Origin: Octopus vulgaris
Lineage: Eukaryota
Length of the DNA: 64,000 nucleotides
Direction: 5' to 3'
Assembly (NCBI GenBank): GCA_951406725.2
Contig: OX597831.1
Span: 49,786,001-49,850,000 of the forward strand
Positions 534 through 61,682 of the stretch are shown here, in pieces. Within the stretch, counting starts at the first letter, position 1. Every line of letters starts with the position of its first letter. Position numbers and translations under genes: made by a program. Below the pieces are notes generated by a model that was not told where the DNA came from, searched no databases, and worked only from the letters and a program-made list of their open reading frames with translations.

Positions 534-602
<69 letters not shown>

Positions 603-751
603 AGGGCAAGACCGCTAGGTAGTCGGCCGTATGCTAGAAATAGATCACCAACGATCAAACTACAAAGAATGTTCTCTAGAGGAAAATTCAGCGAAACACC
701 AGAACAATTAGGCGGGCAAGACAGATGAAAATTATATAAAAGAGCAGAATT

Positions 752-831
752 AATCACATACCGGCGGTTTCAACTATTAACAAAAGAATTACTTACATAA
801 TCCAAATGTCCGTAGTTTCGTCAGTGCGATC
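752..831 (-). ncRNA. Type I hammerhead ribozyme
   Basis: Minus strand: gatcgca-CTGACGA-aacta...tagtt-GAAAC-cgccg-GTA-tgtgatt; stem I 7 bp (with G-U), stem II 5 bp, stem III near-palindrome ACCGCCGGT. Confidence 0.8.
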
Positions 832-1282
832 GTTCCGACAAATGTAATTTGAAAAAACTAACCACAGCTTTCTGTGTCAAAACAGACACGTGTTTAGTTT
901 TACCGATTACATTAGGGATAATTTCAAATGTCTTAGTTCTAGCGCGCTAAAAATTCCGAAAGCGAAGAACTGCAGTAAATAATTTACTGCGGTTAGTGCT
1001 GTCTATTATAGAACATATTAATTTCAATATTTAAATAATGAGGGAGATAAATTAATATCAATTTAAAACCAGTAGCCTAGCATACAAAATTCTGAAAAAT
1101 CAGAGAAAATTCTAATACATGTGTATATTCAAAGGCCAAGACCACTAGGTAGTTGGCCGCATGCTAGAAATAGATCACCAACGATCAAACTACAAAGAAT
1201 GTTCTCTAGAGGAAAATTCAGCGAAACACCAGAACAATTAGGCGGGCAAGACAGATGAAAATTATATAAAAAAAACAGAATT

Positions 1283-1362
1283 AATCACATACCGGCGGTT
1301 TCAACTATTAACAAAAGAATTACTTACATAATCCAAATGTCCGTAGTTTCGTCAGTGCGATC
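1283..1362 (-). ncRNA. Type I hammerhead ribozyme (second copy)
   Basis: Same sequence as 752-831. Confidence 0.8.
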
Positions 1363-3158
1363 GTTCCGACAAATGTAATTTGAAAAACTAACCCCAGCTT
1401 TCTGTGCCAAAACAGACATATATTAATATTTGAAGCTTTTTAAACAATGAATCTAAGTTTCACGTCGCCAATTATTCAAATGACAGACGTAGAAATGTAC
1501 CGTGATTAAGCAAAAAAATTCTCATTCATTGAAATTTCATTGGTTAGAAAATGCTCGTTTGAAATCCATCATCCGTTCATTTATTCAACTTTATTCACCG
1601 AACAGTTGATAAGTCCTTGTAAATCCATCTTTTCATAATTTTCTCTATTACGAGTATAAAATTTGTACATACAAGTAAAACAGCTATTAGTTATGAAGTT
1701 TTACTCTTAATGGATATAGAATTGTTTTCTCTTTAATTATGTCCTTGATTCAGTTCGTGTCAAATCCTTATGTGGAAAATAACCTATTTTAGCCTGTAGC
1801 TGGTTGAAAATTTCAGCACAGATAAACGAACAAAATTGAAAATTTTAAAGTAAATTGACATATTGAAGAGCAGTTTAACTGCAAATGAGCTATATTATAG
1901 ATTATATTCCAAGGTAAATCTAATAACTTGTATGTATTACCGACCCTTAGATGAAGTACATTATTTCGAATTTCATAATAGTTTACATTTGTTTCATTTA
2001 TATACAGAAATGCTACCAAATAGTCCGAATTTGCATTACCCCTAATTGTTGTAGGATCGGCAACGAACTCCTCACGATTAAGCAGTCTACAGGATATTAT
2101 ATGAAAATTACAATGCAAATTGGTGCCTAATTTTATCAGATTTTTTGTGTACATTGTAAATTAGATTCTGGAAAGAGTACACATGGAAACCATCCACGTT
2201 AATTTTGATGATAACCTACAGAAGAGAGAACAGGAGATACTTGAATTCATGATTGATAAATACTTACAAAAATTCACGAGTGATACCTGAAAGAATTCAG
2301 TGAAGGAATATTGTGATTAATGCTAGAAAATAATTACTTCTCTATCTGACAATCAATAATTCCTCCAAAACGAAAGGCACAGTTAAGTCATCCTACTTCC
2401 CCAACACTGCATGTTTTCGAAGAAAAATATCTGTATCCAATTAAAGTTTACTTTTGATAACAGGCTTAAGACTTAAGACTTATTTAAAAGGAATCTTGAA
2501 AATCTATCTCCTTGGTCTTCTTGAGTTTTTGAAATAAAATTGCGGAGGAACATAGTAGATTTCACATATTAATCAATAACATTCATGAATAATTTAAGTT
2601 TAGTTTTTAACGAAAAAAAAAAAACATGTTCATTCAGGTCATCCTATTCATTGAGGGAAATGAAATTGTGACAGCTGATCTCAACTATATACCTGCAGCT
2701 ACTAGGATGTTAGATTTAGTGATCTACCACATGCTGAAAGAGACATTTCATTTAATATGACGCGTCATATGTGAGTTGAAGATTGAAATAGAATACAGAT
2801 ACAGTTGGAAGAAATTAAATATTCCTTCGGAGATAAAAATATTCGGAAGACTTGATTAAGTTTTCCTGATACGATCATAGAAAAACGCATCTCAATATTG
2901 ATTAGGAAGAAAATTTTGCATTGAAGAGGAGAACGAATGAAACCATTCTCTTTGTAGTCACTTACAATGCTGGAAGCCAAAATAAAACCAGGATATTTTC
3001 CATTCCTACACCAATTAAGAAATCTGAATGAAATTATTAAAAAGGTATAGATTGACAATAATCGGCAATCGCTACATGATCTAAAGGAAAGTTACTCTTC
3101 TCGTAATATAGGCAGATTTACATACTAAGAAGAATGATGCAGGCAAGGAAATGTAAAG

Positions 3159-17669: not shown

Positions 17670-18417
17670 TGTCGATCCTATGATGAACACGTTTTTTTAT
17701 TATGATGTAATATGTAATATAATGACTCCTCAAATTAAAAAAATGCGTACGAAACAGCTGTAATGTATCCACACACTCTTTTTTAAAAGCTTTAATTTTT
17801 ACATAGAATCAAAAAGAGTCTCACAGAAAATATATTTGTGTATACATTCCGAAATTCACAAAATAAGTTTGAAATATATAACAGAAGTAGCAGACAAAAA
17901 GAGAAAAGAGTTCACGTAAGTTTTCCTTATAGGAGTAGCTTTAGTGAATAAATTTTTGTCTGCATGTTGCATATGTGTGTGCGTGTGTGAGTCTATGTGT
18001 ATAGGTGTGTGTGTGTGTGTGTGTATGTATCCTCAATGTGAGAAACATAGACATCATAGTTAGCTTCCGGGTTATCATTTTGAAGTAGTATTGATCTAAA
18101 ATGAATTAAATATTAAATATTATAAATAATAGATGAAAATCATTCAGGTTACATAGATTATATGTAGTGATACTCGCTTCCTCTGTTACCAGGAATAAAT
18201 AAGAAATCGAGTTACTGATTTCCACAAATGTTGAAACAAGATAGACCTGTAGTTCTGAATCTTTGTCTTCTGTAACGAAGCCAGATATGTACTTACAAGA
18301 TGCATGCCTTTATACCGTTTCTACGATTTCTGATATATATATGTGTGTGTGTGTGTGTGTATGCATTTATATATATTATATATATCTATATATACTATAT
18401 ATATATATATATGTATA

Positions 18418-19006
18418 ACGATAAATCTCAGAGCGAGTTATAAACAGTAGCGGTAACACATCGTGACGCATATTTGCCATTTGAATATGGCTAACCCCTA
18501 AGGGTGGATGCTACTGTAGTTTGTAGCCCCAGGAAGATACCTCCTCCAGCTGGCTATAGACACACTATCTGTGCCCTATCAGTATTTGTGAAGGGAAGTC
18601 ATCCTTCCCGTCTTCAACTTATGATACACACGGACTCGAGTTTCAAGGTGTTTACCTATCATCAGCGTGTGACAATCATAGTTGTCGACGAGAATTCAGT
18701 TTCCCTCACAAATACATATACTTTTTCCAGTGTCGATTGACACTGATATTGAAGAAGTGAAATCAAACAATGATAAATCTCAGAGCGAGTTATAAACAGT
18801 AGCGGTAACACATCTTGACGCATATTTGCCATTTGAATATGGCTAACCCCTAAACACCTTGAAACTCGAGTCCGTGTGTATCATAAGTTGAAGACGGGAA
18901 GGATGACTTCCCTTCACAAATACTGATAGGGCACAGATAGTGTGTCTATAGCCAGCTGGAGGAGGTATCTTCCTGGGGCTACAAACTACAGTAGCATCCA
19001 CCCTTA
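18418..19006 (-). mobile_element. Candidate retrozyme: 352-bp unit (1.24 copies) plus a 5'-inverted segment
   Basis: 18420-18501 repeats at 18772-18853; 18852-19006 is an inverted copy of ~18499-18653; homologous to 61148-61680. Confidence 0.85.
18627..18671 (-). ncRNA. Type I hammerhead ribozyme
   Basis: cacacg-CTGATGA-taggt aaac acctt-GAAAC-TCGA-GTC-cgtgtg; palindromic stem III ACTCGAGT; U.U at the first stem II pair. Confidence 0.85.
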
Positions 19007-19029
19007 AACCTCGCTAAGATAAATATTTC

Positions 19030-19098
19030 AATCACCTGAAGATTGACTGTAACTCGAATTTTTACGAATTGGACAGCCATGAAACGATCGTAGTGTTA
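19030..19098 (+). ncRNA. Type I hammerhead ribozyme (imperfect stems)
   Basis: cac-CTGAAGA-t tgactgt...acagcca t-GAAAC-GATC-GTA-gtg; palindrome ACGATCGT. Confidence 0.65.
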
Positions 19099-19301
19099 TA
19101 CTCATTTCTTTTTTAATAATTTTGATTTATATTTAAAATAATATTAATTAATTAATCTTATGTATTGGCTTAAGTTTTTCATTGTATGATTTGCCTAAAA
19201 GTGGTTTTATCTCTAATTTAATATAATATAATATTTTACTATAAGATTGGATTCAATCCTAAATCTGATTTTTCCCTGTAAGTTTGGTTTTATTCCCTAA
19301 T

Positions 19302-19373
<72 letters not shown>

Positions 19374-19379
19374 CATACA

Positions 19380-20850
19380 CGTTGGACTATACATACTCCA
19401 CCAGCTCCAAATACATTTCCCTAACCTCAAGGGCGGCCTCTACAGAGATGACGCCTTGCTAGTTACCGAGAGCGTAAATAAATCTTCTTTAGAATGAGCT
19501 AGAAAAGATCTACACAAATATTTCTGTAGCCTAAACCTGTCTATTGCGTTTGAAAATTCTCGCAAAACTACTAACTTTTTAAACGTAACTTTAAACTTAG
19601 AAACCTACCAATACCACAAACCTAACGAATGCCTTAAATACCTAAACATTCATTCCAATCACCAAAAATCCACGTCTGATAACATAGTCAAGGGTACTGG
19701 ATCCGTATATCCGACCCCTCTTTCACTGAGGAAATATTCAATAATCACGCACCATATTACACCAAGCGCTCGCTGCCAGCGGCTTCTCCCAACAAATAAA
19801 ATACATCCCTAACATCAGGCTCAAACAACATATATCTCAAATCACATCACAACGACACACCAACCATCACAATCACAACAGACCTCATATACACTTTGCT
19901 AGAACCTAGGAAGGACAACCTAGACCCCACACGCACACAAATAACACTAGGTCAAAAGCTAAAACAACTAAAACAATTAACAACAACGGGTCATGCACCC
20001 CCTCCATTTTCCAAAACTATAGATAGCATTACCTCTAAGCACCTAAAATGTAGTGGACGCTTTTTTCTATGGTATACACCCCACTTCTCACTAAATGTTA
20101 AGGACTTAGCTAAATCCTTCTTTAATGTACTGGACTCCAACTTCCCTCGTCGTAATAAATATTACTCTATCTTTAATAGATACACCCTGAAGCTATCCTA
20201 TTCCACCCCAGCCAACTTCGAGTCTATCATAACAGCCCCTAATAAAGAAAACCTTTCCCTCTACTATCAAAACTCACACCATAGCAATTCTAAATACACG
20301 AGCGCCCGACATGTACACAGCTCCAGCATCGAGCCCCATATGTTAGACCACAACCCAACCCATCCTACTAACAACATCCAAAATAATACCACAACTTCCA
20401 CCACTCTTAGAGACAGAATAATTAACAACAATAGCACTAACAACAACAACAACAATAATAATAAAAATAATAATAAAAATAATAAAAATAAAAATGATAA
20501 AAATAAAAATAATAATAATGATAATAATAATAATCGTAATATTAATGATAATAATAATGATAATAATTATAATAATAATAATAATAATAACTATAATAAT
20601 AATAATAATAATAAAAATAATAACAATAATAATAATAATAATAATAATTATAATACTAACTTAGACTTTTCTATCCCCATCTCTAACCTATCCTCTGACA
20701 GTATTACCTCCTTCATTCCTGAAAGTAATGCCCAATATACACCCACTTGTAACTGCGGTCCTGGGTCCATCTGCACTCTACAAACCCATTGTAGAAGATC
20801 TAATATAATTTATAAATGCACCGTCCTCAACACATTACACAATTCTACAG

Positions 20851-61147: not shown

Positions 61148-61682
61148 CTCCTTCACAAAAACTGAGAGGACACAGATAGTGTGTCTCTAGCCAGCTGGAG
61201 GAGATATCTTCCTGGGGCTACAAACTACAGTAGCATCCACCCTTAGCGGTTAGCCATATTCAAATGGCAAATATGCGTCACGATGTGTTACCGCTACTGT
61301 TTATAACTCGCTCTGAGATTTATCATTGTTTGATTTCACTTTTTCAATATCAGTGTCAATCGACACTGGAAAAAGTATATGTATTTGTGAAGGGAGCTGA
61401 CTTCTCGTCGACAACCATGATTGTCACACGCTGATGAAAGGTAAACACCTTGAAACTCGGGTCCGTGTGTATCATGAGTTGAAGACGGGGAGGATGACTC
61501 CCCTTCACAAATACTGAGAGGACACAGATAGTGTGTCTATAGCCAGCTGGAGGAGATATCTTCCTGGGGCTACAAACTACAGTAGCATCCACCCTTAGGG
61601 GTTAGCCATATTCAAATGGCAAATATGCGTCACGATGTGTTACCGCTACTGTTTATAACTCGCTCTGAGATTTATCATTGTT
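61148..61682 (+). mobile_element. Candidate retrozyme: 352-bp unit, ~1.5 copies
   Basis: 61150-61329 repeats at 61502-61682; reverse-complement homolog of 18418-18853; ends in (TA)n. Confidence 0.85.
61425..61469 (+). ncRNA. Canonical type I hammerhead ribozyme
   Basis: cacacg-CTGATGA-aaggt aaac acctt-GAAAC-tcgg-GTC-cgtgtg; stem I extends to 61381/61514. Confidence 0.9.

Follow-up and report, generated by a model that had tools for sequence, protein, structure and literature searches.

A two-armed retrozyme copy in Octopus vulgaris: junctions of a (TA)n-inserting hammerhead family that probably uses a Penelope-like reverse transcriptase

Results

Two retrozyme copies in the window

The window is a stretch of 64,000 nucleotides of Octopus vulgaris DNA (contig OX597831.1, positions 49,786,001 to 49,850,000), and a period scan of it gave 352 as the best period in two regions. 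The unit was numbered u1-u352 after window positions 61331-61682. The features of the two regions are as follows:

18340..18416, no strand: TG/TA microsatellite, the target at the T end of the focal copy
18417..18853, minus: main (tail-bearing, T) arm of the focal copy, u265-352 plus u1-349; 437 nt, 1.24 units
18417..18459, minus: 43-nt 'tail' of the focal copy, between the family-wide ends u306 (18460) and u349 (18417)
18627..18671, minus: complete type I hammerhead motif of the focal copy, predicted cut between 18633 and 18632
18851..19006, plus: inverted arm of the focal copy, u112-267; 156 nt, identical to 18499-18654
19004..19307, plus: repeat X, a solo pLTR-like end of a Penelope-like element, unrelated to the retrozyme; (TA)n follows at 19308-19377
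19370-20450, plus: decayed Penelope-like RT fragment
61150..61682, plus: second, independent copy, a single arm of u172-352 plus u1-352; 533 nt, with (TA)n at the end
61425..61469, plus: hammerhead motif in the second copy; helix II has A-U at its base, and the cut is predicted after 61463

Segment 18417-18501 recurs at 18769-18853 and segment 61150-61330 at 61502-61682, so that the 352-bp period reported by the first-pass annotation was confirmed in both places, and the second copy, which had been put at 61148-61682, is present but starts at about 61150. In the focal copy the order is (TA)n, main arm (minus), inverted arm (plus) and repeat X; its arms are joined head-to-head, with 3-nt overlaps at 18851-18853 and 19004-19006, and total 590 nt (1.68 units), in agreement with the earlier reconstruction of a template of ~1.7 units. 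The flipped segment described there proved to be an exact inverted duplicate, 18851-19006 being the reverse complement of 18499-18654 at 156 of 156 positions. That template was also said to cross the cut site twice, which holds as one crossing per focal arm, with the inverted arm carrying the 3′ ribozyme half only (predicted cut after 18872). The two copies had been thought to end at nearly the same point; they share an end class, which has two common forms, u349 (seen in the focal arm) and u352 (seen in the second copy). The T arm of the focal copy is typical of the family.

The hammerhead motif and the fold of the unit

The unit carries a type I hammerhead motif at u95-139, with a helix II of 4-5 bp, and self-cleavage is predicted after u133. 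In the focal copy the motif consists of a 6-bp helix I, CUGAUGA, a helix II of 4 bp whose base is U.U, GAAA and a palindromic helix III of 2 bp. A search of Rfam returned no match to the motif, whether at the gathering score or with E values of up to 5, and the active fold of the isolated focal motif (-5.9) was less stable than its MFE (-11.5). The columns of the ribozyme core are 98% conserved, against 91% overall, and helix II shows a compensatory change. Circular folding of the unit gave z = -4.6 and -7.4 (40 shuffles each). In a 20-copy alignment 95.9% of the cells are paired, and of the 82 pairs 15 vary on both sides, compared with 10.0 in shuffles (none of 500 reached 15), a covariation that comes from about three subfamilies and from a structure drawn on that alignment itself. 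Each window copy has one complete motif, and hence neither can release a monomer; two consecutive ribozymes occur in neither of them, and at least two same-strand cores were found in 29 of the 138 insertions analysed below.

Elsewhere in the window (585-1418, minus) lies an unrelated hammerhead tandem with a period of about 531 nt; it has two same-strand motifs (predicted cuts near 1290 and 759) and could therefore release a monomer. Hammerhead-like motifs with different stems were also seen near Penelope-like loci (L215:3170-3245, minus, and L199), and further hammerhead families are likely.

A dispersed family with at least three subfamilies

An exact-pattern search found 632 exact ribozyme cores genome-wide (2.8 Gb). 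An exact 22-mer of the unit gave 263 matches and its reversed control 0, which excludes chance, and a pattern allowing one mismatch gave 350 matches, with 0 or 1 in the pattern controls; the DNA search scored 40 of 2,672 candidates. Copies lie on most chromosomes. Subfamily A has a unit of 352 nt, subfamily B one of 353 nt, about 88% identical and in longer arrays, and subfamily C is older, about 80% identical, with the same unit in 25 loci; across the three, units measure 352-354 nt and arrays reach about 7 units. The unit is low in GC and has no ORF or LTR features. This is a dispersed non-LTR retrozyme family with at least three subfamilies, and the class assignment made by the first-pass annotation stands on the tandem 352-354-nt unit, its low GC, one hammerhead per unit, dispersal and duplications of more than 4 bp. 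Open-access literature, searched by titles and abstract openings, yielded nothing on this family or on retrozyme junction mapping.

The unit is present in sequencing runs of four organisms; of the runs listed, none is recorded as RNA. In two runs guessed to be RNA the contigs, which cannot show ends or circles, hold the unit in natural order and cover it and the neighbouring repeat X equally. A variant contig that dominated RNA depth was set aside, since it is subfamily B, under-counted in DNA by the identity cut-off.

Two end classes and the pairing of arms

Junctions were mapped in 138 distinct insertions (100 of A and 38 of B; 108 in an earlier pass). The sample is not random: it was drawn from the best full-length matches, the first listed pattern matches and B loci partly chosen for multiple matches, it excludes clusters of less than 100 nt, clusters within 60 nt of a locus edge and subfamily C, and it counts local duplicates at two loci (L071 and L107) twice.

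The outer ends fall into two classes, S at u300-310 (mostly u306) and T at u345-352 (mostly u349 and u352), so that the unit has two fixed ends 43-46 nt apart. An AT-rich flank, mostly (TA)n, adjoins 141 of 158 S/T outer ends, and exact u306-(TA) junctions number 692 genome-wide (control 0). Target duplications of 12-13 bp were found at four non-TA targets (L027, L079, L101 and L114; 8 candidates listed), and none is visible at the focal copy. The first-pass annotation described a 5′ inversion in this copy; in the family a head-to-head arrangement of inverted arms is no rarity but the most frequent one (82 of 138 insertions). These 82 comprise 64 S+T, 1 S+S, 1 T+T and 16 with one other end; thus 64 of the 66 two-armed insertions in which both ends are canonical have one end of each class (p=3e-17 vs 50%), and the pattern-ascertained part of the earlier pass gave S+T in 33 of 34. 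Arm length did not distinguish a leader from a follower, the S arm being longer in 23 of 45. The T end at L003:2201-2260 carries the unit's final 25 nt in triplicate, as though reverse transcription had begun anew several times.

The junctions show what is expected of Penelope-type insertion, namely two internal starts (a tail), an inverted truncated partner and an AT-rich target. Mobilisation of that type, as proposed earlier, gained support from the TA target, the two fixed ends and the 64/66 one-of-each pairing. The fixed priming site that had been suggested was retained in part: the ends of the 138 insertions, placed on the unit, argue for fixed internal initiation, but at two starts (u306 and u349/352) rather than one.

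The outer end of the focal inverted arm

The inverted arm of the focal copy ends at u267 and the main arm begins at u265, with a 3-nt microhomology. Ends at u267 that adjoin TA are rare (3, vs 692 at u306), so that the focal copy needs a special cause, and a role of u267 as a third regular start was rejected on these counts. In L1 elements, twin priming produces a 5′ inversion in which the flipped segment is contiguous with the main block, and the focal copy is alike in contiguity and microhomology, but it has no poly(A) end, and across the octopus family the second arm has its own fixed start. That the whole family inserts by L1-style twin priming, in a single pass of one RNA, would account for the contiguous focal arms, for a similar case at L014 and for the rarity of u267-TA ends. 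Against this, contiguity within 8 nt was found in 12 of 67 insertions, vs about 6 by chance, and several of these were unit-boundary artefacts; tail-arm inner ends lay at u300-315 in 5 of 64 (2.9 expected), the arms often overlap in template coordinates, and the other two-armed u267 copy (L037/L263) is not contiguous. Moreover, u262-273 is a general stop hot spot, with 16 of 219 inner ends vs 7.5 expected, a post hoc comparison. For the family, this reading is very unlikely; for the focal copy alone it is plausible, with about an even chance. The inversion resembling twin priming that had been noted at this copy is thus upheld as far as contiguity goes and fails as a family rule, and a single 1.7-unit pass is only one reading of the focal copy.

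Two causes of the u267 end are about equally likely. Local twin priming where the first cDNA had stalled would produce the contiguity of the focal arms; alternatively, a cryptic start or a microhomology deletion, combined with a stop at the u262-273 hot spot, might have produced the same end.

The second focal arm meets repeat X through 3 shared bases, without duplication, and X begins there at its usual 5′ edge. Repeat X is a high-copy element with its own minimal hammerhead motif (19033-19095), two ends (x231 and about x305) and inversions or head-to-head copies. In contrast to the retrozyme, most X copies start no more than about 15 nt from a single 5′ point and have no tandem units; an intron of about 900 nt, present in L151/L216, is absent from the window copy. 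The parent Penelope-like element of X was not found. Private changes number 5/297 in X and 3/590 in the retrozyme, and since this leaves their age order at p=0.13, the junction may also stem from one chimeric event in which the template was switched from X. A search for the focal insertion's empty site did not recover it.

Candidate mobilisers and the solo pLTR explanation

Two young, intact families of Penelope-like elements were found in the genome, each encoding an RT, a Cys linker and, at the C-terminus, a GIY-YIG domain, in a partial search that scored 150 of 6,136 GIY-YIG candidates. In the 781-aa family (L198-L207) the nearest copies are 0.3-0.6% apart in 9 of 10, and there are also an ORF upstream and, in the pLTR, an apparent intron; for the 775-aa family (L208 and further matches) 131 of 131 scored matches were identical. 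Both end in (TA)n, with paired ends about 38-40 and 30-35 nt apart. The start region of the unit was no more similar to the ends of NepA, NepB and X than to shuffles (p 0.19-0.98). These two apparently active Neptune-type elements are candidate mobilisers that share no sequence homology with the unit; the Neptune/Nematis label is provisional, following the linker motif described in PMC8557442 rather than a tree.

Alternatively, the repeat might be nothing other than a solo pLTR belonging to an autonomous Penelope-like element. It shares its ends, inversions and target with genuine solo pLTRs, X among them, homology to pLTRs is described for Xenopus retrozymes (bioRxiv 10.64898/2026.07.22.740005), and with 150 of 6,136 candidates scored a parent could be missed. 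However, the sequence returns to u1 after u352, and the older, 80%-identical subfamily has the same unit in its 25 copies. Fragments of Penelope-like elements occur in the 1.3-kb flanks of a few of the 108 insertions and differ by locus, and in the 50 GIY-YIG and X loci nothing matches the unit but one separate copy of the retrozyme, in L208. Nor does the unit run on into an RT ORF in those flanks or in those 50 loci, and the absence of a common continuation around the 108 insertions bears out the earlier preference for a retrozyme over a pLTR joined to an RT ORF. The solo pLTR explanation is largely excluded, and we regard it as extremely improbable.

The decayed RT fragment at 19370-20450, which we take to be Naiad-like by its motifs (without Pfam support), has 14,449 candidates in the genome, and those scored are mostly broken. 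It was rejected as a partner, as (TA)n lies in between and its relatives, of 44-76% identity, are for the most part broken.

A circular or a linear template

Arms run through the cleavage site. The first-pass annotation had proposed copying of more than one monomer, and indeed 106 of 219 arms exceed one unit and 24 exceed two, the longest measuring 2,439 nt; of the 219 inner ends, just 4 fall within u128-140, where 8.1 are expected. These results excluded a cleaved linear monomer as template, and the position of the starts, 173 and 216-219 nt downstream of the cut, indicated that priming is internal.

Each insertion carries one sequence haplotype. At 24 subfamily-diagnostic sites discordance was 28/959 (2.9%) between the arms of one insertion, 20/551 (3.6%) within arms and 40% between insertions. 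Variants fixed across all covering units of an insertion comprise 473 shared and 23 private ones, and only 4 are partly shared; 15 of the 23 private variants span both arms, and they fill all units in L218 (5/5) and L220 (6/6). The simplest account of this concordance would be a circular monomer, although homogeneous source arrays would give the same concordance as a circle.

A partly shared variant at u226 in subfamily B was apparent only, and vanished on realignment to the B unit. At u171 in subfamily A, a C-to-T change differs between arms in 7 insertions (L024, L056, L060, L084, L086, L103 and L040), 6 times in the S arm; the numbers are small.

The same family with the same two-start insertion could have used an uncleaved linear multimer, transcribed from tandem arrays, with no circle. 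No circular or monomer RNA was seen in the contigs of the four runs, 29 of 138 insertions have at least two same-strand cores and are possible sources, and in L220 one variant follows an identical unit order in the two arms, which a heterogeneous multimer template would produce. For the anole Penelope-like element, uncleaved RNA is the main substrate and ribozyme cleavage is dispensable in vitro (PMC11167929). On the other hand, linear copying would be expected only to shorten arrays, yet arms reach the length given above; the private variants of L218 and L220 are in all units; and it is in multimers that palindromic hammerheads should be able to cut, since a short palindromic helix III impedes cleavage of monomers and works in dimers (PMC4209133). 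We consider the linear multimer unlikely. The junction signature fits a Penelope-like RT that primes both DNA strands on a circular monomer.

A LINE inserted in the retrozyme

A two-ORF LINE of 4.6-5.3 kb, with zinc knuckle, RT and zf-RVT domains, lies at the same site in two retrozyme copies from different subfamilies, with a 20-bp duplication of u75-94, just upstream of the hammerhead. In 20 of 21 pattern matches, from subfamilies A and B, u75 directly follows the LINE 3′ end; the pattern was built from three retrozyme-linked copies, and other LINE subfamilies could differ. The loci are L266:540-5839, L267 and L268-L288, and in L283 there are apparently two LINE insertions in tandem. We presume that this LINE belongs to Tx1. 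Tx1 elements that target transposons are known (PMC4494074), and open-access literature linking Tx1 with retrozymes was not found.

Discussion

The octopus family agrees with metazoan non-LTR retrozymes (Cervera and de la Pena 2020, PMC7229834) in its short tandem unit (about 350 nt in axolotl), GC below 45%, the absence of an ORF, a stable circular fold, one type I hammerhead per unit and duplications of more than 4 bp. Mussel repeats of 350-390 nt, similar to the unit, yield circRNA, and axolotl HHR_Amex2 resembles the focal motif in having a helix III of 2 bp and a helix II with U.U at its base (PMC7229834). In contrast, the octopus copies are mostly dispersed arms of 1-2.5 units, their circle and cleavage are predictions from sequence, and their fixed paired ends and head-to-head inversions are undescribed in the main text of that paper.

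Insertions of Penelope-like elements likewise show partial tandems, an inverted 5′-truncated partner and a tail that is often one-ended (Craig 2021, PMC8557442), as well as AT-rich or (TA)n targets and two RT starts downstream of the cut (PMC8557442; Frangieh 2024, PMC11167929). In vitro, the RT of the anole element starts at two adjacent internal sites, and the tail is the span between them (PMC11167929). The octopus unit differs in having no RT/endonuclease ORF, a tail of 43-46 nt rather than 30-40, and no detectable homology to the local Penelope-like ends tested. Retrozymes of Xenopus also co-occur with Penelope-like elements, as mono-, di- and multimers, and their mobilisation by these elements has been proposed (Li, Clavereau, Pollet 2026, bioRxiv 10.64898/2026.07.22.740005); 1 of 9 predicted Xenopus dimers was cleaved in vitro (bioRxiv 2026.07.22.740005). 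There the link is drawn from homology and distribution, and in the octopus from insertion junctions, with no parent pLTR found.

The focal element is probably a dead-end copy of a (TA)n-inserting, two-ended retrozyme family that borrows a Penelope-like RT acting on a circular RNA monomer. Paired hammerheads would cleave the transcripts of tandem source arrays, and the resulting monomers would be ligated into circles; the weak palindromic helix III would let the circle survive while multimers are cut. A Neptune-type RT-endonuclease would then nick both strands of the (TA)n target, one cDNA would start at u349/352 and the other at u306, and each would roll a variable distance before the two are joined head to head. 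A more specific version, which we put forward tentatively, is that a Neptune RT-endonuclease dimer primes both strands simultaneously on one 352-nt circle, with one subunit per start, and rolls through the hammerhead, and that the LINE parasitises the retrozyme and would have its RNA ends cleaved by the hammerheads on either side.

The retrozyme class and its link to Penelope-like elements have already been proposed in print, from co-occurrence and homology; what the octopus family adds is the junction evidence, the one-start-per-strand rule, the candidate enzymes and the site-specific LINE. If confirmed, targeting of a retrozyme by the LINE would be a new target type for site-specific retrotransposons. 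The Penelope integration signature can be read directly in the retrozyme junctions, with a near-strict rule of one start per strand and one haplotype per insertion, and with two intact young Neptune-type proteins and a 352-nt template, the question of a circular versus a linear template for Penelope-like elements becomes a simple assay.
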